Virus record (IMG/VR): IMGVR_UViG_3300032092_000001
Strand: one strand, 5' to 3'
DNA length: 64,000 nt
Origin: a virus
Lineage: Duplodnaviria; Caudoviricetes
The notes under the pieces were generated by a model. It did not search any database. It had not been told where the DNA came from and saw nothing but the letters and a program-made list of their open reading frames with translations. Below, piece by piece: positions 7,761 to 64,000 of the stretch. A program made the translations under genes and the position numbers. The first letter of the stretch is position 1. Every line of letters begins with the position of its first letter.

Positions 7761-8018
7761 ATGGAATACGGACAAAGACAATTTATGATATTTGGTACAA
7801 GTGAGTTACCTCTTATTGATTTTACACAAGTTTTAGAAACATCAATAGATACCGTTAGAAAGTCGGTTGATGAAACAAAAACATTTGTTAAATGGGATGG
7901 TGAGGTCGTTCCATCAAGTGTGGATTCTTTAACAACAAAAGAAGGACCGTACACTTATGAAGAAATATTAACCATTTTACAAACTCCTGAATGGACATCT
8001 CCTGAACCAATTATATGA
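7761..8018 (+). CDS. Small conserved phage protein (fibre accessory?)
   Basis: 85 aa, IDFTQVLETS.DTVRKSVD..KTFVKWDG; sits between LamG genes. Confidence 0.7.
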   Translation: MEYGQRQFMIFGTSELPLIDFTQVLETSIDTVRKSVDETKTFVKWDGEVVPSSVDSLTTKEGPYTYEEILTILQTPEWTSPEPII

Positions 8019-8767
8019 GTACAGTACAGAATGTAAGAAATATTACAACAAATGGATTGGTCTTATTCTTGGATGCCGCAAATCCTAAATCATATGTAAG
8101 TGGTAGTACCTCTTGGAATGATTTATCAATTGGTGGAAATAATGGAACCTTGATAAATGGACCAACATATAATAGTGGAAACGCTGGTAATATCTCTTTT
8201 GACGCTGTTGATGACTATTGTGCAATAACAAATAATTTAACAACTCGGCAAAAGTGGAGTAGTTTTTGGTCAAATTCTAATGAGGTTACCTTTATAATGG
8301 TAATCTCTGCAAATTTTTCAGGAAATACAACACAACGAGACCCAATATTCGGACAACAATACTACTATGGTGCGGGTTTTAGTATTGAAATTCACGCAAA
8401 CAACCAATCACCTCGTGCGATTGGTTATAATATAGGGGCTTCTGGTAATTTTAATAATCTTAATGGACCAACGTGGAGTAATTTTACTAATACTCCAACA
8501 TTTATTAGTATAACACATAATGGTACTACAAAGGCAGTAAGGTTTTCGGTAAATGGAGTGTTCTATAATACTGCACTACCTCAATCAGTTTCAGTCGGAA
8601 ACTTTATGAGTGATACAACAAACAACGTACAATTAGCAAGATTTACAGACGGAGAAGGTTATAGTAGTAAATCATTTTATCAATTAATGACTTACAATAG
8701 AGTACTTTCAGACCAAGAAGTTCTCCAAATTTATAATAGCGTCAGAGGTAGATTTAATTTACCATAG
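8015..8767 (+). CDS. LamG/concanavalin A-like domain protein 3
   Basis: GLVLFLDAA...NGPTYNSGN.G.ISFDAVDDY...YNRVLSDQEVLQIYN. Confidence 0.8.
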   Translation: MSTVQNVRNITTNGLVLFLDAANPKSYVSGSTSWNDLSIGGNNGTLINGPTYNSGNAGNISFDAVDDYCAITNNLTTRQKWSSFWSNSNEVTFIMVISANFSGNTTQRDPIFGQQYYYGAGFSIEIHANNQSPRAIGYNIGASGNFNNLNGPTWSNFTNTPTFISITHNGTTKAVRFSVNGVFYNTALPQSVSVGNFMSDTTNNVQLARFTDGEGYSSKSFYQLMTYNRVLSDQEVLQIYNSVRGRFNLP

Positions 8768-13984: not shown

Positions 13985-14169
13985 TGATTTATCAAAAGAT
14001 ATTATTCACTTACGGTTCTCCAGTATCTGAAGGTTATATGGAGATAGATGAGACATCAGGAACATTGGCTAGGCTAATGGATTTAGATTGTAACACTTTA
14101 AATTTAGAACCACCATATGGTTACTACGTAACTGACCCTGAACCTCCTAAACCAAGCTGTATTCCATAA
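13984..14169 (+). CDS. Small hypothetical protein
   Basis: 61 aa, translationally coupled on both sides (TAATG overlaps). Confidence 0.65.
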   Translation: MIYQKILFTYGSPVSEGYMEIDETSGTLARLMDLDCNTLNLEPPYGYYVTDPEPPKPSCIP

Positions 14170-15065
14170 TGAGTTACGGTTCATTTGATTTACCAACAAA
14201 CCAATTAAAAACACAAGTTTTTTATCAGTCCACAACTTGGACAATACCTCAAGGTGCAACAATGTTACACATCGTATGTATTGGACCCGGTGGAGGTGGT
14301 GGTGGTGGATTTACAAATGCAACAGGTAACCCTCGTGGAGGAGGTGGAGGAGGTGGTTCAGGAGCAATCTCAACATTATTAATTAAAAGAATATTCCTTC
14401 CCGACGCATTAAACGTTGTGATTGGGGCTGGAGGAAATGGTGGTGGCGCAAATACCGCAGGAACAAACGCTACCCCATCATATGTAGAGTCAATTAGGTC
14501 AACTGGTCCTTCTGTACCAACACCAACCGATTTAACCGCATTACTATTAAGAGGTAATGGAGGCAATGGAGGAAACGCAGGAACCTCAGCTTCAGGTGGG
14601 GCGGGTGGAAGTGCTGGTGCGGGGTCAACCACCGCAGTTCAAGTATTAGATAAATTAGGTGTTTTTTCAACTATTGGAGGACAAGCAGGTGCAACAGGTG
14701 GTGCTCAGACAGGTGCTGCGGGGAATTCAAATACTTACGCAGGGACTGTTACAGGTGGAGCGGGTGGTGCGGGAATTAATACTTCAGTACAATCAACATT
14801 TGCAGGAGGTGCAATTAACGGAGCAGGTTTTGTTCCGACTATTCCAGGTGGAGTGTCTCCAACCTTTTCAGGTAATACAGGTATTCATTTATTAACCCCA
14901 TTCGCATCAACAGGTGGTTCAGGTGGAGCATCAAGTGATGGATTAGTTGGTGGATTTGGTGGTAATGGTAATATTGGTTGTGGTGGTGGAGGAGGAGGTG
15001 GTGGAACCACTGGTGGAACAGGTGGTCGTGGTGGTAATGGACTTGTAGTAATAAATTATTGGTAA
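14169..15065 (+). CDS. Glycine-rich phage virion protein A
   Basis: W.IP.G.TML.I.CIG.GGGGGGG; ends GG.GG.G.VVINYW. Confidence 0.8.
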   Translation: MSYGSFDLPTNQLKTQVFYQSTTWTIPQGATMLHIVCIGPGGGGGGGFTNATGNPRGGGGGGGSGAISTLLIKRIFLPDALNVVIGAGGNGGGANTAGTNATPSYVESIRSTGPSVPTPTDLTALLLRGNGGNGGNAGTSASGGAGGSAGAGSTTAVQVLDKLGVFSTIGGQAGATGGAQTGAAGNSNTYAGTVTGGAGGAGINTSVQSTFAGGAINGAGFVPTIPGGVSPTFSGNTGIHLLTPFASTGGSGGASSDGLVGGFGGNGNIGCGGGGGGGGTTGGTGGRGGNGLVVINYW

Positions 15066-19649: not shown

Positions 19650-20948
19650 TTATTGAGTTTTTTGGCGATAAGTAATTAAATTTTTCATTTTACTCATTTC
19701 CTCATTAATTAGATTTGTTTTTTCATTTTCAGATTCGCCTAACTTTGAAAACATTTTATCTAATTTACCTTCTTTCTTATCTTCCCCTGCAGTATCTACA
19801 GGTTGTTTCACTCTCTTATAACTTCTATCAACTTCTTTCTGATATAGGTTTTCTTTTCTTTTCTTATTGATTTTCTTACCTAAGTCAGTCTCAACAGCAT
19901 TTGCATATTTACCTGAGTTACCAGTCTTTTCAGAACCTTCAATATTCATTGACAACCATTCATCATTTGGTTCAATCTCATCATATTTTAAATTTTCCAT
20001 GCCAGGAGAATAAGCGAAGTTTTCAATATATTCTTCAACAGCGTCTGATGCTCTATAAGCCTTTTTAGACATCTCTCCTAATTCACCATTTCCTTTTGGG
20101 AAGTGTTTAGGATTCATTTCAAAATTTCCTTTTGAACCTGCCTTAACATACTCTTTCATTTTCTTTTCAACGTCTTTCAAAGCGTTAGAGTTAACTTGTG
20201 AATCTTGTTTGTGCACTTTGTCATAAGCAACTAACCCTTTAGCTTTACCACCCTTAACATTGTTTGTTATCTGTTCTTCAGTAACTATTGACTCAATCAT
20301 ATCAACTAACTCATTCTCAGTTAAATCAACAGTATGATTTTCAGATATTGCAACTCTATAAGTTACTGACTCCTCAAGTGTTTCAAAACCAAAATCATCT
20401 TCGTCTTCAACACTATAGTCTCTCTTTATGTATCTTCTAAGGTATTTTTCTAAAGTTTCTTTATCTTCATCTGATGGGTTCATTAGATTCATTCCACCGA
20501 AAGCCGGATGTGAATCTTCCATACCTCCTAAATCTTCATTAGCTTCAACTTTATAGGTTTTTCCATCAACCTCAAATGATGTTTTACCAGCCTTTTTAGC
20601 CTTTGCCAATTCACCTGTAAACTTATTACCTTCACCAATTTCTTTTTCTAATTGGGTTTCATTAATTTTTCTTATCATTTTATTAATCAATTTATTACTT
20701 AAAATTATTTTTTCACCGTCATTATTTTCAAACTTACCGCCATGAGGTACTTTACCTTTATAAACAACTCTTTTAGATTTATAGTCGTCAGATTTTTTAT
20801 AGTCATACTCTTGCCCAACTTCTAATTCAAAAGTGTCAATATCTTCATTAGTTTCAACTTTTTGCATAATTTTTTCAGTCAACTCATCAGCTTTACTTTG
20901 AATTGACTCATTTAAAATTCTATTGAAAAGTTCTTTACTATTTTTCAT
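19650..20948 (-). CDS. Highly charged putative head scaffold/internal protein
   Basis: 432 aa, E/K-rich; many (I/L/V)xE(S/N/E) sites; GNKFTGELAKAKKAGKTSFEVDGKTYKV motif; TATTTAT upstream. Confidence 0.6.
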   Translation of the reverse strand: MKNSKELFNRILNESIQSKADELTEKIMQKVETNEDIDTFELEVGQEYDYKKSDDYKSKRVVYKGKVPHGGKFENNDGEKIILSNKLINKMIRKINETQLEKEIGEGNKFTGELAKAKKAGKTSFEVDGKTYKVEANEDLGGMEDSHPAFGGMNLMNPSDEDKETLEKYLRRYIKRDYSVEDEDDFGFETLEESVTYRVAISENHTVDLTENELVDMIESIVTEEQITNNVKGGKAKGLVAYDKVHKQDSQVNSNALKDVEKKMKEYVKAGSKGNFEMNPKHFPKGNGELGEMSKKAYRASDAVEEYIENFAYSPGMENLKYDEIEPNDEWLSMNIEGSEKTGNSGKYANAVETDLGKKINKKRKENLYQKEVDRSYKRVKQPVDTAGEDKKEGKLDKMFSKLGESENEKTNLINEEMSKMKNLITYRQKTQ

Positions 20949-22114: not shown

Positions 22115-22714
22115 TTATTCTTCAGTTGGTTTAGTTTTCTTTCTGACCGCTAAAACTTTAGCCCACTTAGATTTGAACTTTTCATAAAAAGTTTGTAACT
22201 TATTTACAGTATTTAACAAATTCTCATCTAATTTCATCATTTCCCCTGACACATATATTCCATTATTTTCACCAATAGTGAAATAAAAATCCATGTCAAA
22301 ATCAACAATTTTACCAGACCAATCCACGTTATTTTTATAAACGTTTAATTGCTCAAAATTAACCAAGTCCGATACTTCGTTAACAAACTCGTCCATTGTT
22401 TCTTGGAAAGCGATTTTATCATCAGTAGTTAATTCTATATCTTTTTTAGTATCCCCGTGTATAACTAATACCCCACCAGAAATTCTATAACCTTGTTCCA
22501 CCTCATTTTTCTTCTCAGTATCATCCTCAATGTCATCTTCAACAGATGTTGGTACATTATATCGTTTACCTATATTTGAAGGGGTTTCAATTTGTTCGTT
22601 AATTGAATATCTCTTTTTAATCTCATTTACATGTGATTTAACAACAGGATTACTTTCATTAATTAAATTCTTAATTTTCCTTAGTTGGTCCTTAATATCT
22701 TGGTTATCTTTCAT
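22115..22714 (-). CDS. Hypothetical protein (putative head protein)
   Basis: 199 aa; N-terminal DQLRKIKNLINES motif. Confidence 0.7.
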   Translation of the reverse strand: MKDNQDIKDQLRKIKNLINESNPVVKSHVNEIKKRYSINEQIETPSNIGKRYNVPTSVEDDIEDDTEKKNEVEQGYRISGGVLVIHGDTKKDIELTTDDKIAFQETMDEFVNEVSDLVNFEQLNVYKNNVDWSGKIVDFDMDFYFTIGENNGIYVSGEMMKLDENLLNTVNKLQTFYEKFKSKWAKVLAVRKKTKPTEE

Positions 22715-24537: not shown

Positions 24538-25362
24538 TTAGATGTAATCAAACAAACTTGAACTCTCGTTACGTAGTTTACGTAAAGCTTTTTCCTTAAT
24601 CTGTCTAACTCTTTCTTTGGTTAGGTTGAAATCCGAACCAATATCTTCCAATGTTCTTGGAGTCCCCGAGATACCGTAATAGTCCTCAACGATTTGTCTT
24701 TCTCTTTCATCCAAAACATTCATAATGTCAAACAACCCGTCTTTAAGTTGTTGGTCCCCGTTGAAAACCTCATCGGGTCTCATTGAGTCCTTATTCTCAA
24801 TTAAATCAATTAGAGTGTCTCCCTCTTCGTTGATTTGATGCTCAAGATTGATTGTTGATGGTAGGTTAACGAATCTACTATCAATCTCACTTCCGTCCTT
24901 TTCAGTCTTCTTTTTCTCTTTATACAAGTCCTGTATAACATTTACAGGAATACGAATGGTTCTTGAGTGTTCGTTTAAAGACTGAAGAATTGATTGTCTA
25001 ATCCACCACACCGCATAAGATATAAATCTTAGGTTTTTGGTCCAATCAAAGTTTTGAATCGCTCTCATTAATCCAATATTACCCTCAGCAATTAAGTCAC
25101 AAAAGTCAACTCCCTGATTTTGATACATCTTAGCCACGGTAATTACGAATCTTAAATTACCCTCAAGTAATTCTTGTTGGATTTGTTGTTTTTCTTTTTC
25201 AGTAATATTTGGAGATTGTATTCTTAAAGATAACTCCCTTTCCCTCTCGGGTGTCATTACCTTAATCTTTCTAATGTCCTTCAAATAATGCGAAATCTCA
25301 TCTTGGTTAATTGGAATAACCACGCTCTTGTCCACCATTTTCTTACTTTTTTGAGTACTCAT
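24538..25362 (-). CDS. rpoD: Sigma-70 family RNA polymerase sigma factor, Bacteroidota RpoD-like (no region 1.1)
   Basis: Region 1.2 ISHYLKDI; region 2 NLRFVITVAKMYQNQG...DLIAEGNIGL...FISYAVWWIRQSILQ; region 4.2 TLEDIG..FNLTKERVRQIKEKALRKLR. Confidence 0.95.
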   Translation of the reverse strand: MSTQKSKKMVDKSVVIPINQDEISHYLKDIRKIKVMTPERERELSLRIQSPNITEKEKQQIQQELLEGNLRFVITVAKMYQNQGVDFCDLIAEGNIGLMRAIQNFDWTKNLRFISYAVWWIRQSILQSLNEHSRTIRIPVNVIQDLYKEKKKTEKDGSEIDSRFVNLPSTINLEHQINEEGDTLIDLIENKDSMRPDEVFNGDQQLKDGLFDIMNVLDERERQIVEDYYGISGTPRTLEDIGSDFNLTKERVRQIKEKALRKLRNESSSLFDYI

Positions 25363-52281: not shown

Positions 52282-54055
52282 AGTTATCAGTTATTATAAT
52301 ATTTGATGTACTACCTGTTGCAATATTGGTTCCCTCAGGAATAATTCTAAATTGGAAATTATTGTGAGGGTAGTGAGAATTATTTAGATATGGATAATCA
52401 ACACCTCTATCCTCATTGTCAATAAATCCATATGTATAAATGTCTCTCCATATATATTCTTGCGTACTTTTCTTATAAAATGCGTAATTAGGTAAGTCGT
52501 TAATAATTTGTCCGTCACTTTCTTCCACATAATTTGAAAAAACTTTAATTACCATTTTATTATGTGGTTTATAATAGTAACCTAACGGATTAGTAGTTGT
52601 TGTTCCGATATTAAAAACATCAGGATTAAATGTTATCTTATGATAATGTTCTGAAATGACTATCTCATTTTGTTCCAAATCATTCCACTCACAAAAATCT
52701 CCGTCAATTTCATCACCAATATTTAAATCCGAATTATAGTAAAAAATCTTATTACTATATTCAGGAACAGAACTAGCATATGATAAAGTTTGTATTTGTG
52801 TGTTAGAGTTGACGTTACTCCTATCCCACCACCCATTTAGTTGTGGTCCTAAATTAAATTCCCATCCCTTCTTTAGAGCAGTATTAGTATTACCAATTGG
52901 TTTGTTAAACCATCCAAAATAACCACGATTTATAACCGTGAAATATAATTCAGTTATTGGTCTTTTTAAATTATCTAATAACCCATTAATATCAATATCA
53001 TTTAAAAATGATATGTTATAAGATTGACTATCTTCCTTAACTGAAACTCTTGAAACTAAATTTGGAGTTAACTGTTTTGATTCAAATTTTTTAACGACTC
53101 TTAATCCATTTTTTTCAAACCCCGATTTGGTAATAACGGCATCTGTAAAATTTGTTAAAATTTTATGTTTTCTTACATAGTATTTTGACACTCCTTGAAC
53201 TTCTTCCCCAATAACCCTTTTGAATGTTCCCATACCACTATTTTCTAAAATAGTACAATTATATCCAACATCATATACATTGAATATAAATTTTTTACTA
53301 TTACTTAGTCCATTACCAAGACTATATACTTGGAAGTACGTAACTCCATTGCAGGTATTACTTAACTTAACATAATCCCCAACATTTAGGTTATGGTTCA
53401 TCGGACAATCAAATTGTATAATTGGTTTTCCATTTAAGAATCCTCTGGTAAGATAATATGGTATACCATCAGAACAATTCCAATTATATGTTGAGCCGTT
53501 ACTCATCACACATTGCATTGTCTGAGCAGTTGTTGAACTATAAGCGTAAGACAAATGAATATACCAATTGTAGTATGGTGCCAAGTTATCTGAAGCATGT
53601 AAATGAGGTCGGTCACCTCCCAGCTTAGTATATCCATTAACATTCAAATCATTTCTAATTAAAGAAAATTCATTGTATTGAGGATACCCAGCCCAAGATA
53701 TTTGATTACTAACTCCATTACCGGCAGTAAGTTGTAGTTGTTTATACGTTAAAACATCAGTATAATACAACTGATTGTTAAAAGGTTTATAGGGTGTTGA
53801 TGTGGTGTTACCGATAGTTAATCCACTATATGAGTTACTAAATAACCAACTAAATTTACAAGTCGGTCTGAAAATCGTACATTCATTTCTTTCAGTGTCA
53901 AATAACTGTTGTAAATTTAATGTTAGATTTTTATCGGTTTCATCATATTCTTTAATAGTATTAACTAACGGGATTTGTAATCTAAAATCCACATCGTTAG
54001 AACCCTTATATCTGAGCTCACCCTTAATTATTGATATTTGTCCTAAATCACTCAA
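52274..54055 (-). CDS. Hypothetical structural protein
   Basis: 593 aa, N/Y/F-rich, in the baseplate block. Confidence 0.7.
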   Translation of the reverse strand: MSDLGQISIIKGELRYKGSNDVDFRLQIPLVNTIKEYDETDKNLTLNLQQLFDTERNECTIFRPTCKFSWLFSNSYSGLTIGNTTSTPYKPFNNQLYYTDVLTYKQLQLTAGNGVSNQISWAGYPQYNEFSLIRNDLNVNGYTKLGGDRPHLHASDNLAPYYNWYIHLSYAYSSTTAQTMQCVMSNGSTYNWNCSDGIPYYLTRGFLNGKPIIQFDCPMNHNLNVGDYVKLSNTCNGVTYFQVYSLGNGLSNSKKFIFNVYDVGYNCTILENSGMGTFKRVIGEEVQGVSKYYVRKHKILTNFTDAVITKSGFEKNGLRVVKKFESKQLTPNLVSRVSVKEDSQSYNISFLNDIDINGLLDNLKRPITELYFTVINRGYFGWFNKPIGNTNTALKKGWEFNLGPQLNGWWDRSNVNSNTQIQTLSYASSVPEYSNKIFYYNSDLNIGDEIDGDFCEWNDLEQNEIVISEHYHKITFNPDVFNIGTTTTNPLGYYYKPHNKMVIKVFSNYVEESDGQIINDLPNYAFYKKSTQEYIWRDIYTYGFIDNEDRGVDYPYLNNSHYPHNNFQFRIIPEGTNIATGSTSNIIITDNCE

Positions 54056-57000
54056 CTATTGAATTTTCATTTAAATATTTTTTTATGAATACATCTAACG
54101 CAGATTTTCCTTTAACTAACCCAAAGTAAAAATGGAATGGAGAACCTGCTATAAAATAATTACTAAAGTCACTGTTTGTTGGTATCTGATATGTCGTACC
54201 CCCAGTTGTATTAAAATTAATAATATAATTCTGAGCATAATTTGTTTTATTATTTACAATATTTGATTGGAAGTATCTACTTGTAGGATTTAACCTATCC
54301 ATAGTTTGGTATCCATTACTTTGGAATTGATTTGGATATACCGGTGAAGAGCTCCCAAATTTATCAGTATACCAATCATTTTTTTGAGTACCAAAAATTG
54401 TTGTCGGTTGTAATTCTCCTGAACTATTAAAATCAGAAATTTTCCAATTATAAAAAGGAACTACTTGTGTTTTAACAGGTATTTGAGTAAAGTCATAATC
54501 ATTGTTAACAGGGAATGAAGAATTTTGATTCCATATAGTTCTTCTTGGAGTAATATAATCCCTATCTTGGGTATTACCTGTAAAGAAAATTCCAAACATT
54601 GCAAACCCATCATACACTCCTTGATTACTAAATCCAAAATATACAGTATCCCCAGGATAATTTTCAGGTGAGAATTCAGTCATTCCAAACTCAGAATTAA
54701 TTGACAACATCTGAGATAAATCCCCATCAACTGACTGAGGAATTAATAAGTCAAGGTTTGAAGGGTTTTTAAACCATCTTGTATTTTGGAAAAGGGATTG
54801 TACTCCTGCATCGTTATCACCTTCATTCGGGTCATCACTTTGGGGGACAATTAATTTAGATAAAGTAGGACTTGTAATCCTACTTAATATAAACATATTC
54901 ATTACCTGAGTAATTCCCTGATATGTGGTAGATTTCAATCTATCCATAATATATCCATCATAGTCATCACTAAACACCAATTCTTGTGTATAAATAACTT
55001 TAGGTCCTAAATCTAATATTGTAGTCGGTGAACCAAGTAATCTTACATTACCTGTTTCATATGAATTACCAACAGGATTAGGTTTACCAATAAATTTACC
55101 ATTATTAATTGTATTAGTGTCCGTCATGTATGGACTACTACGATAGTAGAATGTGTTTGAATAGTCATTAAGATATACAACATCTTTACAATACTCACTA
55201 AATGGTTGATTTGAAGTATTAAAAAATCTATTGTTTTTAAATGCGTACATGTAAAGGGCACCATTTATATATTGGTTTGAGAATGTGTGAGAAAACACAT
55301 CCAAACAAACCGCCAAATTCATTTTTAATCTAGCAGCCCACTCTTTAATACTTTCAATATCAGGTCTAAAACTGTCAAATGGGGATGAAACTAAATTATA
55401 ACATCCGGTACCGTACTTAAATTTAACAACATTACCATAAGACATAAGTTGTTGACAATTTGGGGATATTATCGGTACATTATTTGTAGTATCAAAACTA
55501 TAACATCCTTGTAATACTGCATAATTACAATCTTGTACCGATTTTAACACCCCCTCATATTCAGGTGCCAGTAATTGATTGGATTCGGGAGGAGTGACCT
55601 CAATTTGAGTAACATTAGACAATGGTATAATTTCATTATCCGAAGAAATTTTAAAAACTGTAAAATTTGGATTTTGATGCAAAAAAGAACTATTAGCCCC
55701 AAATTTTGTCATGTTGGTTGAGCTTGGTAACCTATCAGTTCTGACAACAATGTATCTACTATCTGAGAAATTTAATGGGTACGTACTGTAAGAAATGTCT
55801 GTCGGGTCCTCAGGCGCAAAATAGTCAAAACTAAACATCTGAGAACCTCTCCTTCCATCTAAAATATCCCAATTAGTTGGTGCCCATTTATTAATATACT
55901 TCCCTGTTGGGTAAGTCGTAAATGGAAACTCTCCATCAGGATACGAAACATTAGGGCTAGTTATCAATGCATAATATTGAGTTGTTTCATGTGTAGATTC
56001 AAAAATTTCAGCCCCTTCAACTACCTCATTAGGTAAATAATTGCTTGTAAAAAATCTGTCAGTCCAAGAATATGTTGACAAGTTATATGCCGAAGATAAC
56101 TCATTAAGTCCAAAATATTTATAGGGTCCAGTCCAAGCGTATATATCAGTAAAATATTTCCTATAAAAATTATTATTAGATATTGTTAAATTTTTAGTCG
56201 TTGTTGAATAGTAAGACGGTGTTGGGTAAAACCCCGTATTTACAGGTGTAGAATCTTGTCCACTAGCCCATAGACGATTATATACTTGTTCTCTATATTG
56301 GTTTAATAAACCTACAATACTATCATTTTGAGAACCCAAATCTGCCTGCCAATTTAAATTCGCATATGATTCAAAAATCGCAGGACCAACCCCCGAGTAA
56401 TATTTATGCATGTGAGATTTAAATGGTTGGAAGCTGTTTTGACCTAAATTTTTATATTCAAACAAATAACTCTTATAAAAAATTGAACTTTTAGTTGTTT
56501 TGTCATACCCACCTTGTGTTGCGTCATTATTTGAAAATAGGTAGTGATTTGAAGAGCTAATTGAGTTTGACCCCACAGTTGAGTAAGATGCCTGTATTGG
56601 AATATTCATCTTAAATTGTCCCTTAATAATATACTTAACATTAGGGTCAGGAGCACTCGGCACAGTATTTTCATTCCAACTATATTGCCATTTACCAAAA
56701 AGTCGTGACAAATCAATTTTCATATCAATGCTAGGTGAATGAATATCAACCCCTCTCATCAATATTAAAATTCTTTTATTTTTATAATTTACATCTTGAT
56801 TAGGTGTGACAGTACCAATATATTGATTAGTCCAAATAGGAGGTAATACACTTGTTTGATATCCCGTATCCTTAGACCACATAATAACCTGATGTTTATT
56901 TGTAAAACTATTTGATACTTCAGGATTGTTATTGTTATTAGTATTGTTTTGGTTTAAAAACATATACATATCACCATTAGATAATGCATCTTTAACTTGT

Positions 57001-59987
57001 AAGTATCTTCTACCTAACGTAAATGGATTATGATTATAAACTGATTTTGCCTCATATTCAGATATAGTCATACCTGTTAATACTTGGAAGTACTCTATGT
57101 CAGATGGTAATTTACCAACTCCAGTTGAACTTGCATATTCTACTTGAATTGGTCCAGGTGTTGGCCCTGAAGGAGTACTAATACTCCAAACAATATTTTG
57201 AGGAAATCCTGTAATAGTATATGTAGTAGTTTTATTCGCAGAACTTGACCCATTAGTAATAGTAGGGTCAGCATAGGATACTGATAATTGTGTTACTGAC
57301 TTGGTATACCCCGTTGCTCCTGTTTGAGATGTTGTACCTTTAGTATAGTTAATATCTAAAGATTTAGTAGGGTCTTGGAATGTAATTATATCACCTGAAA
57401 CTAAATCGACCTCATCACTATCTAAAACTAAAACCAACACATTATCAAAATGATTAAATTGAGTATTATCATTTGGTAAATTATTATTTGGTTGCCATTT
57501 AACTTTAATCTGATTCCATCCAGTATAATATATTTGCTGTCCATTATATAGAAAACTTTTTTCAAAAAATTTATCTTTAGTATTAAACAAATTGTACAAC
57601 GCCCCCATGTTTAACTGAGGTGACATTATAATACTATCAGCACCTCTAACCTCATCAAAAAAGTAAGTCCATGGTGTATTTGTTGACTCTTTTAGTTCAG
57701 GGTCATCGTTACCTGTTAATACTAAATTTGCAGTTTTTTGCCAATAATCTTTGGTAATATTGTTTATTTGTACAAATTGATTAATTGGGTTTTCTCCGAC
57801 TTGCTGTATATTAGCCTCCGTAGTCGCTGAAACTTCTGTAAAATTAAAACTACTTGAATTTGTCACATCAAAAAGTATCGCAGTCTGTCCATACGAACCT
57901 GTTAATAATGGAGTGGCAACTACAACATTAGAAATGTTACATCTACATCTCTCACACCCATCTTCAGTATAAATTACTAATGGTAATCCAATATTTAAAA
58001 AAGGGTTATCGGGTCTATCTATTGGTTCCCAATCAGGACAATTAATAGTACCAACCCAATTTGGTACAAATTGATTTATTTTATTACAAATTTTTACTAT
58101 TGTCTCTCGTATTCTATTAATAATATTATCAATAACAGGCAATATATTATCATAGACCCAAGCCAAGACATGTACAACGGCAACAATCGCAAATAATAAA
58201 TACGGTAAAACAGACACAACAAAAGACACAAAGAACCAAAGAAAATTTAATCGGAAATGTGAATCGTTAGTTGGAAACTTATTATAGTTACCCTCACAAG
58301 TACTGTCTTGAATATATTTTATTTGAGTAGTATTCCACACAAATCTACTAGTTTGGAACCTATCAATTAAATTACTCACAGTATAAACTTTATTGTAAGA
58401 CATATCATAAAAAGTATCCTTACAATCTATTGCATCTTGGTAATTTGCATAATCATTCCAATCTAAACTAAATGCGTAAGAACCCTCAGCTAAAAACTTC
58501 TGTAATGGTATAGTAATGTAATTAATTATTATTGGTTCATTGACATCCTCAACTTCAAATGTGAATTGATATGGAAAATTTGACGGTCTTAAATTCTTAC
58601 CGTAGTAAACCATACCATTATTTAAAATCTTATAGTTAGTAACATTTTTAACAGATAAAATTCTAACAATAACCGCACTACTAACACTTTTAGACCAAGT
58701 TGTCACACCAACACTTAATTGTTGTGTACTTTCAGTTTCAGAATATGTTTTCTTAATTGGGTCCTCAGTTTCATCATACCACCCATATTCTTTAATATTA
58801 GGAACTAAGTAATACGCTCTTTTAATCTCTTCAGAAAGTTTTGTGGACTGTTGCCACTTAACTTTAAATCTATATTTTCCTCTCGTAGGTATTCCTATAT
58901 TAGGATTATAACTAATTTTTTGGTTACCATATTCATCAGTATAAACATAGTCTAAGTTCATCGGGACTTCTGTCACCCAAACTCCATTCTCGTCAATTAC
59001 TTTACCTCCATTATCCAATTTAAATTCCTCAATAATCGGTAACCCATTTTCATCCAATAATTCAGTTTGTCTAATTGATTCAATACTTCCAGGACCAGGG
59101 ATTAAATCACATAGATTACCCATTTTAACCGAACTTTTACATTTGTTTTGACCTACAATACCTAAAAATTTTGAGTATCCGATTTTTTGAGTATCATTAG
59201 TTGAAAACATTGACCCCATAAAAACTGAAGTAGGTTCAATCTTAATTGCTGCTTCGTTAGTTAAATCAAAATCTGACCTGTAGATATTGTAGTTACAAAT
59301 TTCAGCTTCTCCGAAAAAAGGTGAAACAGTTATAGTTCTTCTTAAACTTACAATTTGAGGTAACTCATCAAAATTAGTTGATGTTTTAAATAAATCTCCA
59401 TCAACCTGAGACTCAATAGCCCTACCCATTCTAATCAAATCTTGGGGGGTTTGTGAGAATGGTCCAATATCAGATAGGTCAACCTGCATGAATAATTCAT
59501 GGTTCCCAACAGGAACACCAAATATCATATAGTCACCTGAATCATTCGTTTGAACTGTAAACTTATAATATTTGTCATAAACTTCAATTACATTTTTATC
59601 AATTAAAACGTCACTTCTATCAGGAAAAGTACCAACAGGTACGTGTCCGCTATGTGAAGATGTGTACGGTAAAAGGTTATATCTATATCCATCATCATTT
59701 ACATCTTGTAAAGTTTTATATGGATATAACGTAGATATAATATCATTGTATAAATCTTCCTCCTCTAAGGGTATGAAAATAGAAACTTTTGCATTAGGGA
59801 TACCAAATCCATTATTGGCAAATACACGACCACAAACAACTCCAAAATCAGAACAATTCCTCGTGTATATTTCATCAGGAGTGACAGTTAACGATAATAC
59901 TTCAAGCGTATCAAAATTTTGTTCTAATTTAACTTGTAAATTTCTATCTTCGTTAAGGTTTGTTCGTATTCTAAAAGATTTCGGCAT
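54048..59987 (-). CDS. Very large baseplate/tail-tip-associated protein
   Basis: 1979 aa; N-terminal GVVCGRV...GIPNAKVSIF (prealbumin/carboxypeptidase-regulatory-like); internal hydrophobic helix. Confidence 0.7.
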   Translation of the reverse strand: MPKSFRIRTNLNEDRNLQVKLEQNFDTLEVLSLTVTPDEIYTRNCSDFGVVCGRVFANNGFGIPNAKVSIFIPLEEEDLYNDIISTLYPYKTLQDVNDDGYRYNLLPYTSSHSGHVPVGTFPDRSDVLIDKNVIEVYDKYYKFTVQTNDSGDYMIFGVPVGNHELFMQVDLSDIGPFSQTPQDLIRMGRAIESQVDGDLFKTSTNFDELPQIVSLRRTITVSPFFGEAEICNYNIYRSDFDLTNEAAIKIEPTSVFMGSMFSTNDTQKIGYSKFLGIVGQNKCKSSVKMGNLCDLIPGPGSIESIRQTELLDENGLPIIEEFKLDNGGKVIDENGVWVTEVPMNLDYVYTDEYGNQKISYNPNIGIPTRGKYRFKVKWQQSTKLSEEIKRAYYLVPNIKEYGWYDETEDPIKKTYSETESTQQLSVGVTTWSKSVSSAVIVRILSVKNVTNYKILNNGMVYYGKNLRPSNFPYQFTFEVEDVNEPIIINYITIPLQKFLAEGSYAFSLDWNDYANYQDAIDCKDTFYDMSYNKVYTVSNLIDRFQTSRFVWNTTQIKYIQDSTCEGNYNKFPTNDSHFRLNFLWFFVSFVVSVLPYLLFAIVAVVHVLAWVYDNILPVIDNIINRIRETIVKICNKINQFVPNWVGTINCPDWEPIDRPDNPFLNIGLPLVIYTEDGCERCRCNISNVVVATPLLTGSYGQTAILFDVTNSSSFNFTEVSATTEANIQQVGENPINQFVQINNITKDYWQKTANLVLTGNDDPELKESTNTPWTYFFDEVRGADSIIMSPQLNMGALYNLFNTKDKFFEKSFLYNGQQIYYTGWNQIKVKWQPNNNLPNDNTQFNHFDNVLVLVLDSDEVDLVSGDIITFQDPTKSLDINYTKGTTSQTGATGYTKSVTQLSVSYADPTITNGSSSANKTTTYTITGFPQNIVWSISTPSGPTPGPIQVEYASSTGVGKLPSDIEYFQVLTGMTISEYEAKSVYNHNPFTLGRRYLQVKDALSNGDMYMFLNQNNTNNNNNPEVSNSFTNKHQVIMWSKDTGYQTSVLPPIWTNQYIGTVTPNQDVNYKNKRILILMRGVDIHSPSIDMKIDLSRLFGKWQYSWNENTVPSAPDPNVKYIIKGQFKMNIPIQASYSTVGSNSISSSNHYLFSNNDATQGGYDKTTKSSIFYKSYLFEYKNLGQNSFQPFKSHMHKYYSGVGPAIFESYANLNWQADLGSQNDSIVGLLNQYREQVYNRLWASGQDSTPVNTGFYPTPSYYSTTTKNLTISNNNFYRKYFTDIYAWTGPYKYFGLNELSSAYNLSTYSWTDRFFTSNYLPNEVVEGAEIFESTHETTQYYALITSPNVSYPDGEFPFTTYPTGKYINKWAPTNWDILDGRRGSQMFSFDYFAPEDPTDISYSTYPLNFSDSRYIVVRTDRLPSSTNMTKFGANSSFLHQNPNFTVFKISSDNEIIPLSNVTQIEVTPPESNQLLAPEYEGVLKSVQDCNYAVLQGCYSFDTTNNVPIISPNCQQLMSYGNVVKFKYGTGCYNLVSSPFDSFRPDIESIKEWAARLKMNLAVCLDVFSHTFSNQYINGALYMYAFKNNRFFNTSNQPFSEYCKDVVYLNDYSNTFYYRSSPYMTDTNTINNGKFIGKPNPVGNSYETGNVRLLGSPTTILDLGPKVIYTQELVFSDDYDGYIMDRLKSTTYQGITQVMNMFILSRITSPTLSKLIVPQSDDPNEGDNDAGVQSLFQNTRWFKNPSNLDLLIPQSVDGDLSQMLSINSEFGMTEFSPENYPGDTVYFGFSNQGVYDGFAMFGIFFTGNTQDRDYITPRRTIWNQNSSFPVNNDYDFTQIPVKTQVVPFYNWKISDFNSSGELQPTTIFGTQKNDWYTDKFGSSSPVYPNQFQSNGYQTMDRLNPTSRYFQSNIVNNKTNYAQNYIINFNTTGGTTYQIPTNSDFSNYFIAGSPFHFYFGLVKGKSALDVFIKKYLNENSIVE

Positions 59988-59998
59988 TGTTTTTTTTT

Positions 59999-60005
59999 AT
60001 AAATA
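59999..60005 (-). promoter_or_regulatory. TATTTAT putative late promoter
   Basis: 11 nt upstream of ATG 59987. Confidence 0.55.
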
Positions 60006-60048
60006 GTTTATTCACTATTTTGAAAAAATAAATGCTCGTCTAATTTTA

Positions 60049-61884
60049 CTATGAAATATTCACAGTTTGAGAATTGATAGTCCTAACCAATATATCAACA
60101 TTAGGATATCTTACTTGGAATATCTGATTTGGTTCAGAATATACTGTATCATTAACCAAACTTATTTGTTTAGTAACATCATTTGAATAACTTTGTGATG
60201 TTTCAGATGATGAATATAATCCACCTACTTTATTAAAGACTGAGACATTGGATACCGATAATACTCCGTTTAATGATTGTATGAGTCTTTTAATTTCTGA
60301 AACATATAATGGTTGCCCCATTTCTCTGTTGGTGGGTTCCATGAAGTTTGTAACTGTGTTTATCACATCGGTAATTACAACTCCTTGGTTTTGGCTTGAA
60401 TCCAAAACTATTGATATGTCAAAAGATAAATCAATAACATTCGCAGCCCCTACTACAACATAATCATTAATCATTCTGTAGTTTGATAAGTAAGATGCCA
60501 CATTATCCAATAAAGTTTGTGAGACAACATCACTTAAATTACCTAAACTATCATAAGTTAATAATGTGACATTAATTTTGTTATCACTCTCAAGTATCGC
60601 AACTTTAGCTGGTGCACCAAATTGAGAAGGCATTTTTCTTAAAATTGACTCGTAATCATTTATTGTAACCGCTCTATTCTGAGAAGAGAAATTAAATCCA
60701 ACTAAATTTCTAACCTCTTCAACTGTCGGTAAGTTAGCACCTCCGATAGCTGGGAAAGGATTAGTACAATTTAAAGAACTTATTACCGAAGTATTAATAG
60801 TCTGAGACGCACCGTTAACTTCAAAGTTAACTTGTCCGATTTGGTTAATAACATTTACACCCAAATTAGTACCTAAACCACCTCCAATTCTGTATTGTAC
60901 AAATAAAGTACTATTAACAGGTATTGTTGACCCGAGTGAGTAATTATTTTGATATTTAGATAAATCCAAAGGTTGACCGCTTCTAGCGAAATCTCGTAAA
61001 ATTTCATCCGTTGATTGACTACCACCACCAAAAGTCATTTTTAAAAATCCTTCAGGTGTATATTCAGTGATAAATCTATTATTTGTCTGAACGTATCTAC
61101 CAACTTTTAACCCAGGGTTATCTGATGACCTTGTTGGGTCCTCAATAAAAATTCTATCCTGTGCCAAAGCGTCAACTTCGTACCATCTATTATTAGCAGA
61201 TAGAAATTCTTGAGCCGAGGGTACATTAGCATAATTGGTACCAGGTTTAACAATAACACTAGTCACACCTATTACATTTTTTTCAGGTAAGAATAATTCA
61301 AAGAAAGGTCTGGAGTCATTAGTATTAATTACCCTTCTAAACACTTTCGTTATCCCATTAACAACCGGTTCTCTTTTAATAATGGTATAATTTATTAAAT
61401 TGTTGTTAGAGTCTCTATTTGGTATTACTAATCTTGGGGTTACTCCATCGTTACTAAATGCCGATGCGAAGTCAATGTCATATATGTTTTCAAAAACCTG
61501 TCCCGCCCCAACAAATTGTGAACCTCTTCTTAACTTACCACAATACGTATTATCAGGTTGGTCCCCAAATGCTGGTACCGTTATACTAAAATCACAAATT
61601 GCAACTGAGGGTCTTAATCCCGGAATCTTTAAACCATAAGTTCTTGCAATGTTATATATTGAAGAACGTTGTTGAGCGTATTGTAATACAGTTTCTTGTA
61701 ACGCTCTGTCTATGTTATAATTTAAGTTATCGGCAACCGCCGCGTTCATATCCAAAAATACAGAAAACACCGAAGCGTCATTTGCGTTTTGAATTAATTC
61801 AGGATAATAACTTTTTACGTAATTAATAAGTTCACTACGAATATTTTGAAAGTCCCTTACAGTATATGATATTTGTTTTGCCAT
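60049..61884 (-). CDS. Baseplate wedge protein (T4 gp6/baseplate J-like)
   Basis: DFQNIRSELINY...; QYRIGGG..TN; AIGGA...TVEEVR; SSQNRAVTINDYE; adjacent to the gp25-like gene. Confidence 0.85.
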   Translation of the reverse strand: MAKQISYTVRDFQNIRSELINYVKSYYPELIQNANDASVFSVFLDMNAAVADNLNYNIDRALQETVLQYAQQRSSIYNIARTYGLKIPGLRPSVAICDFSITVPAFGDQPDNTYCGKLRRGSQFVGAGQVFENIYDIDFASAFSNDGVTPRLVIPNRDSNNNLINYTIIKREPVVNGITKVFRRVINTNDSRPFFELFLPEKNVIGVTSVIVKPGTNYANVPSAQEFLSANNRWYEVDALAQDRIFIEDPTRSSDNPGLKVGRYVQTNNRFITEYTPEGFLKMTFGGGSQSTDEILRDFARSGQPLDLSKYQNNYSLGSTIPVNSTLFVQYRIGGGLGTNLGVNVINQIGQVNFEVNGASQTINTSVISSLNCTNPFPAIGGANLPTVEEVRNLVGFNFSSQNRAVTINDYESILRKMPSQFGAPAKVAILESDNKINVTLLTYDSLGNLSDVVSQTLLDNVASYLSNYRMINDYVVVGAANVIDLSFDISIVLDSSQNQGVVITDVINTVTNFMEPTNREMGQPLYVSEIKRLIQSLNGVLSVSNVSVFNKVGGLYSSSETSQSYSNDVTKQISLVNDTVYSEPNQIFQVRYPNVDILVRTINSQTVNIS

Positions 61885-61885
61885 T

Positions 61886-62350
61886 TTATATATTGATGAT
61901 TACAAAGTCTTTAGAGTTAAAAACATCGTTTGTTATTGTGTATTCAACTTTAACCTTAGCAGTATACTCTTTAGTCCCTCTACCAGGTAAAAGATAAACT
62001 CTTGGGTCCAAATCAGGATTTGTGTTTGCAGCAATTGGGTCCTCTTCTAACTCAACTAAAGGGGTTATTGATATACTATTAATTAGTAAATTAGGTATGT
62101 ATTTCTCAACGGAGTCTTTAATGTCTGATTCAATATCATTAAATGTTGGTCCGTCTAATGGTTCAAATATAAATTCATAAATACGTGTTCCAAAATCAGG
62201 TAAAAAATATCTACTTCCTTTTCTAGTTAAAAGCAAATGAATCAAATTACTTCTTATCTCATCATTTGTAGTTTCAGATAAGGAAAGGTATTTACCAGTT
62301 TTAGAATCTAAAAAAGGAAAATTTATACCGTATGTTATACCATTTGCCAT
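61886..62350 (-). CDS. Baseplate protein, gp25/GPW family
   Basis: IRSNLIHLLLTRKGSRYFLPDFGT.IYEFIFEP. Confidence 0.9.
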   Translation of the reverse strand: MANGITYGINFPFLDSKTGKYLSLSETTNDEIRSNLIHLLLTRKGSRYFLPDFGTRIYEFIFEPLDGPTFNDIESDIKDSVEKYIPNLLINSISITPLVELEEDPIAANTNPDLDPRVYLLPGRGTKEYTAKVKVEYTITNDVFNSKDFVIINI

Positions 62351-62355
62351 ATGAT

Positions 62356-62362
62356 ATAAATA
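62356..62362 (-). promoter_or_regulatory. TATTTAT putative late promoter
   Basis: 5 nt upstream of ATG 62350, at the head of the baseplate operon. Confidence 0.6.
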
Positions 62363-62421
62363 TAATGTCGCGATATTTTAACTAAATAGCGTATAAAATA
62401 AAAAAAATACCTATCTAAGGA

Positions 62422-62613
62422 TTAAATTAATACCACAATTTTACCATTAATAGTTTTCGGTATTCCATTATCGTATTCAAATTCCACAAATTCTTGTTTT
62501 AACAAATATTCAGTTATGTAATCATTGATGGGATAATAACTCAAACAATCAACAATTGGTTTTTCTTTTGAGTTGTACTTATAATACCCAACCTCATAAT
62601 CCCATATCGTCAA
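62422..62613 (-). CDS. Possible small hypothetical protein
   Basis: 3' part of the track ORF 62422-62796 fills a gap; a TTG at 62613 is a possible start; the 5' part overlaps the FMN reductase gene and is probably spurious. Confidence 0.35.
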   Translation of the reverse strand: MTIWDYEVGYYKYNSKEKPIVDCLSYYPINDYITEYLLKQEFVEFEYDNGIPKTINGKIVVLI

Positions 62614-63361
62614 TGAATTTTTTGTGGGACTTTTTGTAAGAAGATTTACTTTCGTCATTAGAATCTGTTGTATATTGCCAATTCCAATATAGTTCCTTGT
62701 TTGGTTCAAATCCATAGAATTTATGAACTTCCATTTGGGTTTCGGTAACATTCTCACCATTCCAGTTTTGACCAACACAAATAAAACCTGTCTCAATACC
62801 TTCGACTATATTCTTTTCACCTAAAGTAGTGTGTCTACTTTCAATCCAATTCAATCTTTCTATAAGATTTTGATAGAACATGTTAGCCTGTCCCCACCTT
62901 ACCGAACTAAAGAATATTACTGCATCAGACTCAAAAAGTTCTTTAGAAACTTTCCATAGTTCGTCAGTTTTATTATTTAAACTTGCCCAACATCTGTGAT
63001 GTCCTGAAGGGTTTTTTTTATCATCTTTAAGTAAAGATTTTAAGATACCACAACTATTACCTTCTTTTCTTGACACATTACCTTCACAAGGAAAAATCTT
63101 GAGTTCTGAAACATCCATAAAAACTGATTTATCCCCAAGTTCTTCATTCAGGTACATAGCGATTAGTTTTGATTTAGGAACATCAATTTGTTTAGGGTCC
63201 CAATTAAACCTATTTGAACAACTTAACAATAAAACTTTTTTCTTGTTTTTTAAAATGTCTAAAGTTTGTTTTAGTTTCTTAGCACCATCATCTTGGACTA
63301 ATTCTTCCAAAAGCATCATTTTTCTTATTTTTTCAATTTCTTCCTGAATAATATTAGACAT
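62594..63361 (-). CDS. Flavodoxin-fold NAD(P)H-dependent FMN reductase-like protein with N-terminal extension
   Basis: VLLLSCSNR, IFPCEG, SDAVIFFSSVRWGQANMFYQNLIERL; extra N-terminal MSNIIQEEIEKIRKMMLLEE. Confidence 0.8.
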   Translation of the reverse strand: MSNIIQEEIEKIRKMMLLEELVQDDGAKKLKQTLDILKNKKKVLLLSCSNRFNWDPKQIDVPKSKLIAMYLNEELGDKSVFMDVSELKIFPCEGNVSRKEGNSCGILKSLLKDDKKNPSGHHRCWASLNNKTDELWKVSKELFESDAVIFFSSVRWGQANMFYQNLIERLNWIESRHTTLGEKNIVEGIETGFICVGQNWNGENVTETQMEVHKFYGFEPNKELYWNWQYTTDSNDESKSSYKKSHKKFIDDMGL

Positions 63362-63365
63362 ACCG

Positions 63366-63372
63366 ATAAATA
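63366..63372 (-). promoter_or_regulatory. TATTTAT putative late promoter
   Basis: 4 nt upstream of ATG 63361, just downstream of the nrdA terminator. Confidence 0.6.
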
Positions 63373-63382
63373 GTTTATAAAC

Positions 63383-63410
63383 AAAAAAAATCCCGACCTA
63401 GCTCGGGATA
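63383..63410 (-). terminator. Intrinsic terminator after nrdA
   Basis: On -: ATCCCGA-GCTAGG-TCGGGAT followed by a T-run. Confidence 0.75.
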
Positions 63411-63432
63411 ACACATCGGATGTTTTAAAAGT

Positions 63433-64000
63433 TTAAGATGAACAACCAAAACAATCAAAATCACTATTCTCAGGTTTTGGTGGTAAGTTCATATAACTGT
63501 AATCTACCTTTGGTGGTTCAGGAGTTGGTTTTGGTTTGTTAATTTTTGAAATATCAACTGCCAAGTGTTTCGCTCCTGTTGAGATTGCCTTTGTTCTAAC
63601 GTAATAACAAAGTGTTTTTAATCCCTTTTCCCATCCATAGAAATGTGATGATGAAATCTTTGACAACGTTGGGTTACCCATATAGATGTTCATTGATTGT
63701 GATTGGTCAATAAATGGTGCTCTATCTGCCGCCATTTCAATCAATGCCTTTTGTGAGATTTCCCAAATTGTTTTATACTTATTAATCAAATGTTCAATTC
63801 TTTTAACCTTTGAGTTGTATTTTTTATCTTCCAAATCAAGGTAATTGTTGAAGTTAATATTTTGAATTGACCCTTCGTTAATAATGATTTCATTCTTCAA
63901 ATCTTCAGACCAAATTCCAATCTTTTCAAAATCACTAATCAAATACTTGTTAACAATCATAATCTCTCCACCGACTACACGTCTGTTAAAGATTGCTGAG
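63433..64000 (-). CDS. nrdA: Ribonucleoside-diphosphate reductase class Ia alpha subunit, 3' part (5' end outside window)
   Basis: Open to the window edge (SAIFNRRVVGGEIMIVN...); TIWEISQK..I.MAADR..FIDQSQSMN; GWEKGLKT..YY.RT; C-terminal CFGCSS redox pair. Confidence 0.95.
   Translation of the reverse strand, partial: SAIFNRRVVGGEIMIVNKYLISDFEKIGIWSEDLKNEIIINEGSIQNINFNNYLDLEDKKYNSKVKRIEHLINKYKTIWEISQKALIEMAADRAPFIDQSQSMNIYMGNPTLSKISSSHFYGWEKGLKTLCYYVRTKAISTGAKHLAVDISKINKPKPTPEPPKVDYSYMNLPPKPENSDFDCFGCSS

Follow-up and report, generated by a model that had tools for sequence, protein, structure and literature searches.

A putative capsid-targeting leader on a flavodoxin-fold enzyme of an uncultured giant freshwater phage

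The capsid targeting sequences (CTS) of the bacteriophage T4 proteins IPI, IPII, IPIII and Alt, which are removed by the gp21 prohead protease, were reportedly described by Mullaney and Black in 1996, and the principle of pairing such a CTS with a gp21-type protease dates from the 1990s. In HK97-fold shells, a short terminal helix suffices to address a protein to the inside, as in the case of scaffold C-termini, the tail of the HK97 protease and the cargo-loading peptides of encapsulins. The propeptides of the T4 internal proteins, of 10-19 residues, are CTS, and gp21 cleaves after L/I-x-E (PMC9026906). Here we analyzed a 64,000-nucleotide (nt) stretch of DNA (the window; position 1 is its first letter) from an uncultured freshwater giant T4-like phage, which contains the gene of a 255-residue protein, P0001, with a flavodoxin fold. 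Its N-terminal extension begins with a helix that, as judged from sequence comparisons, is a portable tag also found on many unrelated proteins of the lineage. We assign a probability of about one half to the reading that this tag is a capsid-targeting leader, which would load P0001 into the phage head.

The tag resembles the T4 CTS in being a short, portable N-terminal peptide, a propeptide in the proposed reading, that lies outside the cargo fold and ends in L/I-x-E. Furthermore, a protease of the gp21 family, a capsid protein of the gp23 family and the T4 order of head genes are all found in the lineage, whose cargo genes resemble the polymorphic ip loci in their variability and clustering. 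The two differ in sequence, MNLQENIxRIKxMMGxxxE or MSNIIQEEIEKIRKMMLLEE here against MKTYQEFIAE in T4, and in length, since the tag is an amphipathic helix of 17-20 residues whereas the T4 sequence has 10. In addition, the cargo consists here of recognizable metabolic and redox enzymes, known from sequence alone, instead of small basic proteins, and several leader classes are present in one genome. Thus, what is new is the tag sequence, its helical form, the breadth of the enzymatic cargo and the lineage, while the principle has long been known. Literature searches found no published description of the tag. The original prediction, made from the letters of the window, had spoken of an undescribed system; this holds for the tag, but the system is a variant of the T4 CTS principle. 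The parts of the gene on which the comparison depends are these:

62594-63361, minus strand: gene of P0001, a 255-residue flavodoxin-fold (FMN_red superfamily) protein; intact open reading frame (ORF), starting MSNIIQEEIEKIRKMMLLEE
63302-63361, minus strand: putative portable N-terminal tag, codons 1-20, MSNIIQEEIEKIRKMMLLEE, with L-L-E at residues 17-19 (from the structural model, the homologs and other cargo)
63242-63301, minus strand: flexible linker and second helix KKLKQTLDILKNKK, codons 21-40 (from alignments, the model and the N-termini of relatives)

The N-terminal extension and the proteins that share it

The conserved fold of P0001 begins near residue 41 (KKVLLLSCSNR), and residues 1-40 are additional to it, so that the extension originally predicted is real. 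Remote relatives begin (MKILGIST...) exactly at the point where the core of P0001 starts, and the cellular matches in the AlphaFold Database (AFDB) lack the extension, their own residue 2 being aligned to residue 40-42 of P0001. In the AlphaFold2 model (built on 49 sequences; predicted local distance difference test, pLDDT, 90.5; predicted template modeling score, pTM, 0.86) a first helix at residues 2-18 is detached and of low pLDDT, with residues 15-24 below 50, and a second helix (residues 25-38) packs on the core. Conservation throughout the viral family, members without tag included, holds for the second helix but not for the first. Residues L17-L18-E19 of P0001 agree with the prohead-protease motif L/I-x-E. 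The P0001 homologs begin with MNLQENIQRIRxMM(I/L)SEEMVQ or with MSNIIQEEIEKIRKMMLLEELVQ, and a 22-residue hidden Markov model (HMM) of this flavodoxin-specific leader finds only the P0001 gene within the window. A translation start at Met15 or Met16, considered because of the short distance between the promoter-like motif and the first ATG, was rejected, since residues 1-14 are conserved as protein with synonymous variation.

A pattern search in related contigs revealed that unrelated ORFs start with MNLQENIxRI(K/Q)xMMG(L/I/V)..E, and a strict DNA-pattern scan of IMG/VR yielded 64 further tagged loci; the consensus of the tag in the related phages is MNLQENIxRIKxMMG(L/I/V)xxE. When 75 tagged cargo proteins were clustered after removal of their first 24 residues, they formed 42 clusters without mutual similarity. 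Pfam matches among the cargo comprise pterin-4a-carbinolamine dehydratase (Pterin_4a), kinases of the shikimate and AAA types, HD and ART-PolyVal, and other cargo motifs are a ParB-like DGHHR, in one protein, and HExxH. The sequence [LIVM]xE was present within residues 15-24 in 71 of the 77 tagged cargo proteins, compared with 14% of the background windows of 10 residues, the Glu falls at residue 18 or 19 in 67 of the 77, and many tags end in (V/I/L)INE or (L/I)(L/I)TE. Most codons of the tag vary synonymously (L3, CTA 42 and TTA 32; R9, AGA 42 and AGG 34; three codons each for I10 and G15), which indicates that selection acts on the peptide. These sequences argue that the first helix of P0001 is a portable N-terminal tag carried by at least 42 unrelated cargo families, as had been proposed from the window.

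In a complete related genome of 308,574 bp with terminal repeats (G001), whose region at 116-171 kb is syntenic with the window, five tagged genes stand in one row (76189-80472), among them the P0001 ortholog and the tagged pterin dehydratase. The row is headed by the motif TATTTAT 4 nt before its first ATG. A sixth and looser copy of the tag heads the G001 ORF at 14140-14871 (tag-core HMM, E 0.008).

Further classes of N-terminal leaders were seen on dozens of small genes of G001. Most of them end in (I/L)xE and several classes coexist: about 20 genes begin with MK(I/L)IITE(S/N)(Q/K), and other classes are MKK(I/L)I(K/R)LTESDL..., MKELIKK(I/L)LREE... and ...KYL(L/F)GYK.G.VISEQ. Examples are located as follows:

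58021-58777, 62718-65944, 81372-84182, 79470-80069 and 287929-288825 of G001 (L081-L096): genes with other leaders

It had also been proposed that the window ORFs starting at 781, 20948 and 22714 encode head proteins with leaders similar to that of P0001. No head-protein signal was found in them, and they are syntenic with the 116-127 kb region of G001, far from its head module. As for the leaders, only that of 22714 (MKDNQDIKDQLRKIKNLINES) is tag-like by regular expression; the others share only (I/L)xE, expected by chance in about 14% of windows of 10 residues. None of the three ORFs has a significant match to the 22-residue HMM of the flavodoxin leader. Their orthologs keep (I/L)xE near residue 13-15, which is weak evidence. 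Two tag-like segments are present in these proteins:

22115-22714, minus strand: 199-residue protein beginning with a looser version of the tag, MKDNQDIKDQLRKIKNLINES (regular expression and translation); weak Gam-like Pfam match
19668-19715, minus strand: tag-like C-terminal helix NLINEEMSKMKNLITY of a 432-residue, Lys/Glu-rich charged protein (19650-20948), by pattern match

The 432-residue protein, encoded on the minus strand with TATTTAT 14 nt upstream, ends in EEMSKMKNLITY. Its ortholog in G001, of 431 residues, ends in INEEFERIKSLMGYNQKTQ and conserves the tag-like helix as EEFERIKSLMGY.

The TATTTAT motif and the position of the gene

The P0001 gene is placed between nrdA and a baseplate gene, and is preceded by a terminator and by a motif of its own:

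63366-63372, minus strand: TATTTAT promoter-like motif of the P0001 gene, 4 nt before its ATG
63380-63409, minus strand: intrinsic terminator after nrdA, hairpin ATCCCGAGCTAGGTCGGGAT followed by a T-run (terminator scan)
63433-63999, minus strand: 3' end of nrdA, for the large subunit of ribonucleotide reductase (RNR), upstream neighbor (PF02867 RNR barrel, 1.5e-29)
61886-62350, minus strand: gp25-like baseplate wedge gene, downstream neighbor (PF04965, 8e-10; phrog_261)

The terminator had been noticed in the original prediction, and both its hairpin and its T-run were found again. The stem of 7 bp (63409-63390, minus strand) is the sole terminator-like site of the region; it shows compensatory changes in relatives, and the hairpin is kept in many of the regions upstream of P0001 homologs. 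The TATTTAT motif claimed for the gene is likewise present, and far above expectation upstream of ORFs in general: the window has 34 copies on both strands, of which 16 are found on the coding strand no more than 40 nt before an ORF start, where 0.6 would be expected, and in G001 it precedes 89 ORFs against 6.4 expected. The commonest spacing between the motif and the ATG is 4-5 nt, with a second group at 13-18 nt, and in 33 of 41 cases the preceding base is an A. For the P0001 homologs, 46 distinct upstream regions were compared, and in 29 of these the motif is exactly 4 nt before the ATG.

The genes of the window preceded by TATTTAT include gp25 (62356-62362, 5 nt before the ATG) and several genes of very large size and structural appearance; those of G001 include the portal, prohead protease and scaffold-like genes. 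The motif was not found upstream of the genes for Dam methylase, sigma factor, SbcC and amidase, nor of the nrdA ortholog of G001; the start of the window's own nrdA falls beyond the window. A search of PHROGs with ten large proteins of the window, with or without the motif, returned essentially no annotation, and therefore the term "late" rests on gp25, on the head genes of G001 and on gene size. From the set of genes that it precedes, we infer that TATTTAT may be a late promoter. If (A)TATTTAT is a -10-type element, many late mRNAs of the lineage would have little or no 5' leader. At 24538-25362, on the minus strand, there is a gene for a complete sigma-70-family factor, with regions 1.2, 2 and 4 (phrog_351), a candidate reader of the putative TATTTAT promoters; the phage has a T4-type baseplate, and its relatives have a T4-type head module.

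The co-occurrence of tag and motif, which had been put forward as a check, was evident over all the loci: TATTTAT is present within 60 nt upstream of 49 of the 53 stand-alone tagged genes. The tagged genes without it appear to be internal to operons, because 62 out of 66 start no more than 40 nt from the end of the preceding ORF. With respect to its position, the flavodoxin gene directly follows nrdA in 56 of 80 related loci, in 50 of which gp25 is downstream too. In G001 and 14 other loci it lies away from nrdA, inside clusters of tagged genes, and in G001 gp25 is joined directly to nrdA.

Capsid targeting and the alternative explanations

The reading of the tag as a capsid-targeting leader is favored by the head genes of the relatives. 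The two complete relatives, G001 and G002, both encode a PF03420 gp21-type prohead protease (1.6e-24 and 6.6e-26; phrog_207), which in G001 is located at 271066-271791. In G001 the head module, at 267-275 kb, follows the T4 order of portal (phrog_213), protease (phrog_207), scaffold-like protein and major capsid protein (MCP; phrog_138). The MCP is homologous to T4 gp23 (1e-25); in its N-terminal segment (1e-5) the T4 sequence SFLTE65 is aligned with SFLINE60, and SFLTE65 is the site at which gp23 is shortened by 65 residues.

A second line of evidence is provided by the distant homologs of the enzyme. Some of them have no leader, and the others begin with short leaders of at least 10 kinds (MIKFENLLKE, MITLKxILxE, MRLKTILNE, MSRFLKLLEE, MQSFSSFITE, MLKFSDYLITE and others). 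An ending of the type hydrophobic-hydrophobic-x-E at residue 8-16 is present in 25 of 40 distinct extensions, compared with a mean of 7.4 and a maximum of 20 in 1000 shuffles. One of these homologs, P0130 (L329:317-1048), from another metagenomic phage and 43% identical to P0001, starts with MKTYFEFLNDDLSEE, and its MKTYFEFL nearly matches the MKTYQEFIAE with which IPII and IPIII start in the T4 record. The likeness to the T4 CTS that had been claimed for P0001 is sustained by the gp21-type protease of the lineage and by the leader of P0130, but not by the tag of P0001 itself, which is unlike the T4 sequence.

The nature of the cargo is also suggestive. Packaged phage effectors include T4 Alt, an ADP-ribosyltransferase, and P1 DdrB, with a ParB-like domain (PMC5512222), and the ART-PolyVal and ParB-like cargo resemble these known or proposed effectors. 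As in the polyvalent proteins, ADP-ribosyltransferase, ParB-like, HD and kinase domains thought to be delivered with the DNA are found among genes that, in this lineage, are presumably late (PMC5512222). The arrangement is different, since here they are separate small tagged proteins, with a few fused forms (P0055, P0122), instead of many domains in one giant polypeptide.

According to this reading, P0001 would be a late-expressed flavodoxin-fold oxidoreductase with a lineage-specific leader before its catalytic fold. Residues 1-20 would form a free amphipathic helix ending in L-L-E, joined by a flexible linker to the fold. By analogy with the T4 internal proteins, this helix would dock P0001 to the prohead core or to the inner shell during assembly, the gp21-type protease would remove it after Glu19 or Glu20, and the mature enzyme would stay in the head and enter the cell with the DNA. 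Docking, cleavage, packaging and injection are what we infer, as is the substrate of the enzyme.

If this is correct, abundant uncultured giant phages of freshwater would deliver ready-made enzymes at infection, going beyond small anti-restriction proteins: a flavin reductase, a pterin dehydratase, kinases, nucleases and an ADP-ribosyltransferase would widen the range of injected phage proteins. Being readable from sequence, the tag would allow the proteins injected by unculturable phages to be catalogued. It would also add to the T4 CTS, already exploited in the engineering of T4 nanoparticles, another addressing peptide, longer and helical, by which foreign proteins could be packaged in large capsids. 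The occurrence of different leaders on the same enzyme across lineages is a testable signature of cargo status.

An extension of this reading concerns a putative scaffold protein of G001:

269088-270674 of G001, minus strand: acidic scaffold-like protein of 528 residues (P0271), between the protease and capsid genes

This protein has no detectable similarity to T4 gp22 and no PHROG match, and it is called a scaffold only by position, composition and conserved termini. In G001 and the loci L166-L245 its C-terminal 22 residues, NLIESKTYENPQFLRMKDLMSKIK, and its N-terminus, LVEEAIIQMKNLEE, are almost invariant, while the rest varies widely; the C-terminus ...LIESKTYENPQF(L/M)R(M/I)KDLM.K.K is near-invariant in 80 loci, even though identity over the full length is no more than 41-80%. 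In the G001 proteome there are five matches to the pattern R[IM]K.[LIMV]M, against 0.21 in shuffles. Every one of them is terminal: three are in cargo N-termini, one in the C-terminus of the 431-residue protein and one in that of the scaffold. The near-invariant scaffold end and the shared terminal pattern suggest a common docking helix. In this regard the R(I/M)Kx(L/M)M helix at the end of the scaffold-like and 431-residue proteins of G001 is like the HK97-fold docking peptides mentioned above; the likeness differs from those cases in being six residues long and noticed after the fact. It is conceivable, and in our view unlikely, that the tag mimics a scaffold docking helix, so that the cargo N-termini, the scaffold end ...ENPQFLRMKDLMSKIK and the 431-residue protein would bind at the same site inside the prohead by means of one R(I/M)Kx(L/M)M helix, and whole metabolic modules would be loaded and injected. 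A candidate module is the tagged pterin-4a-carbinolamine dehydratase together with P0001 as dihydropterin reductase, a pterin-recycling pair. Were this true, together with the T4-CTS-like leaders of other lineages, the injection of ready-made redox enzymes would be a widespread phage strategy.

Several points weigh against capsid targeting. The closest deposited phages, including Flavobacterium and Microcystis myophages, reach only 26-28% identity, in the gp6-like baseplate protein, and no cultured relative is closer. The protease, scaffold and MCP genes lie outside the 64-kb window and are known from relatives whose copy of P0001 is about 75% identical. As we mentioned before, the tag of P0001 differs in sequence from the T4 CTS, and only the distant homolog P0130 resembles it. 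The motif (L/I)xE is short and common in proteomes rich in Lys, Glu and Ile, and about 15% of the G001 ORFs match a looser leader pattern. Many viral homologs of the enzyme have no leader, and therefore the enzyme works without leader too. In the census, positions 1-15 of the tag were fixed by the search pattern, whereas its ending and codon choice were not imposed, and the sequences are related, so that the counts are not independent events. The late-promoter role of TATTTAT is presumed from the set of genes that follow it. Finally, the six-residue pattern shared with the scaffold was chosen after the sequences had been seen, and the tag-core HMM, which when run on the proteins of G001 retrieves the tags and gives a weak match to the C-terminus of the 431-residue protein (E 1.3), misses the C-terminus of the scaffold; the scaffold resemblance is therefore a lead only.

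Among the alternatives, the tag could be a shared peptide for docking or assembly whose place of action is the infected cell and not the head, either recruiting a varying set of small enzymes to one partner of phage or host origin, for instance a hub protein, a site on the membrane or a replication factory, or setting their stability or timing. The sequence (L/I/V)xE would then be merely part of the amphipathic helix. The presence of one helix on at least 42 unrelated cargo families implies a shared partner without naming it, and the detached, low-confidence position of the helix in the model is in line with this idea, as are the cargo, common enzymes of the cytoplasm such as pterin dehydratase, kinases and a flavin reductase, for which there is no evident reason to be injected. 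However, docking in the cell predicts neither the strong Glu at residues 18-19 nor the T4-CTS-like leaders of ten residues on the same enzyme in other lineages. It also leaves unexplained that the tagged genes share their promoter motif with head and baseplate genes and that the ART-PolyVal and ParB-like cargo are like known packaged effectors. We consider this explanation doubtful.

Another possibility is that promoter, ATG and tag codons form mainly a DNA-level cassette, serving gene capture and shuffling and giving efficient, possibly leaderless, translation starts, with a nearly functionless peptide. Adjacent genes have near-identical tag DNA, with four copies of ATGAACTTACAAGA(A/G)AA(C/T)ATA in G001, the tagged genes stand in rows, and the flavodoxin gene is differently placed among genomes. 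In addition, the distance of 4-5 nt between motif and ATG would make the promoter and the first codons travel together, and Ile7 is encoded by ATA in 76 of the 77 tags. On the other hand, between genomes most codons of the tag differ by synonymous changes and the encoded residues are kept, conservation reaches (L/I/V)xE at 18-19 codons from the start, and the flavodoxin tag variant MSNIIQEEIEKIRKMM keeps the helix pattern despite differences in DNA and in several residues. Such a cassette could coexist with a targeting role, for which it is no substitute; as the main explanation we find it quite unlikely.

It is very improbable, and largely refuted, that the extension is an oligomerization or regulatory helix of the enzyme itself and that the flavoprotein serves the neighboring RNR as an NrdI-like protein or a supplier of reductant: the gene does directly follow nrdA in the window and in the 56 loci already mentioned, and flavodoxin-fold superfamily proteins (WrbA and FMN_red families) form dimers or tetramers, but a terminator and its own promoter part it from nrdA, it lies elsewhere in G001 and the 14 other loci, with gp25 joined to nrdA in the former, the same helix is found on unrelated proteins while many homologs lack it, and P0001, unlike the RNR-dedicated flavodoxins, has neither a match to NrdI or any other Pfam family nor an obligatory operon link with RNR, its nearest structures being FMN and quinone reductases and RosB. 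The role as reductant for RNR suggested in the original prediction is thus contradicted, and for the other one suggested, countering oxidative or NAD-based defense, no support was found.

The enzyme and the rest of the window

The assignment of P0001 to the FMN-reductase-like proteins, also part of the original prediction, was supported by structure and profile searches and not by Pfam. P0001 is below every Pfam and NCBIfam family threshold, including the cut-off of the FMN_red HMM; searches of Pfam, NCBIfam and PHROGs gave no match, even at E<=10. When the model was compared with the PDB by Foldseek, the top matches, in the range 2e-8 to 1e-5, were SP1951 with flavin mononucleotide (FMN) (1.8e-8), SsuE, RosB, AzoR and NQO2, followed by ArsH and WrbA. 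The family profile finds RosB in the PDB (5mji) at 1e-7. Among the AFDB clusters, the best match of the model was a cellular Rieske-fused protein (2e-12); together with FMN-reductase-like proteins it covered 2e-12 to 1e-7, within an overall range of 2e-12 to 1e-5. The remote relatives P0208, P0267 and P0337 carry PF03358, and relatives at 25-29% identity match this family. At the level of fold and remote homology, the model and the profiles indicate that P0001 is a divergent flavodoxin-fold member of the FMN-reductase superfamily.

A word-indexed search retrieved 3217 related proteins, the best of them 72-95% identical and nearly all of 250-280 residues. The family is tight, since an exhaustive search of cluster representatives gave only 147, mostly fragments. 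The nearest Atlas clusters are 98-100% viral, and the family is an almost entirely viral branch of the NAD(P)H:FMN-reductase superfamily. With the FMN reductases, WrbA and azoreductases (PF03358; Flavodoxin_2, PF02525) and RosB, P0001 shares the three-layer flavodoxin-like fold and the loop after strand 1, LLLSCSNR...PKS, which is rich in Ser/Thr with an Arg, a candidate for binding the flavin phosphate, and in which S64 is invariant. It differs from them in its sub-threshold scores, in its almost entirely viral family and in an insertion of about 35 residues with three near-invariant cysteines, C92, C104 and C124 (about 62990-63088 of the window, minus strand). These cysteines could possibly form a metal or Fe-S site or a redox-active dithiol; in the remote cellular relatives P0262 and P0266 the flavodoxin domain is fused to a Rieske [2Fe-2S] domain.

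Some longer forms were also observed. P0122 (444 residues) has a cytidylyltransferase/NMNAT-like domain before the flavodoxin domain, the two being joined by a linker that retains a remnant of the tag, ELQEEVS, and P0055 (446 residues) has basic modules rich in Trp and Cys before an internal copy of the tag. Together with P0035, listed among the fused forms, they may be polyproteins or mis-called starts.

The guanine-plus-cytosine content of the window is 33%. A search of sequencing runs found DNA of this phage in lake and freshwater metagenomes, and no RNA run with matching sequence was among its results. The INPHARED phage collection gave no match in a tblastn search with P0001, in a megablast search with positions 60000-64000, or with the 25-residue tag at E<=10.

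The 3' end of the flavodoxin gene is overlapped by an ORF of 124 residues with a TTG start (62422-62796, minus strand), which has no family match and is most likely spurious. The gp25-like gene is followed by a gp6-like wedge gene and then by that of a 1979-residue protein (54048-59987, minus strand) with TATTTAT 11 nt upstream and no PHROG match, probably a giant baseplate or tail component. At the other side of the window, three adjacent paralogous genes (6347-7042, 7044-7748 and 8015-8767, plus strand) share the N-terminal block GL(V/I)L(Y/D/F)LDAA(N/K)..SY. They are surrounded by large fibre-like genes and probably encode variable tail or receptor-binding parts.

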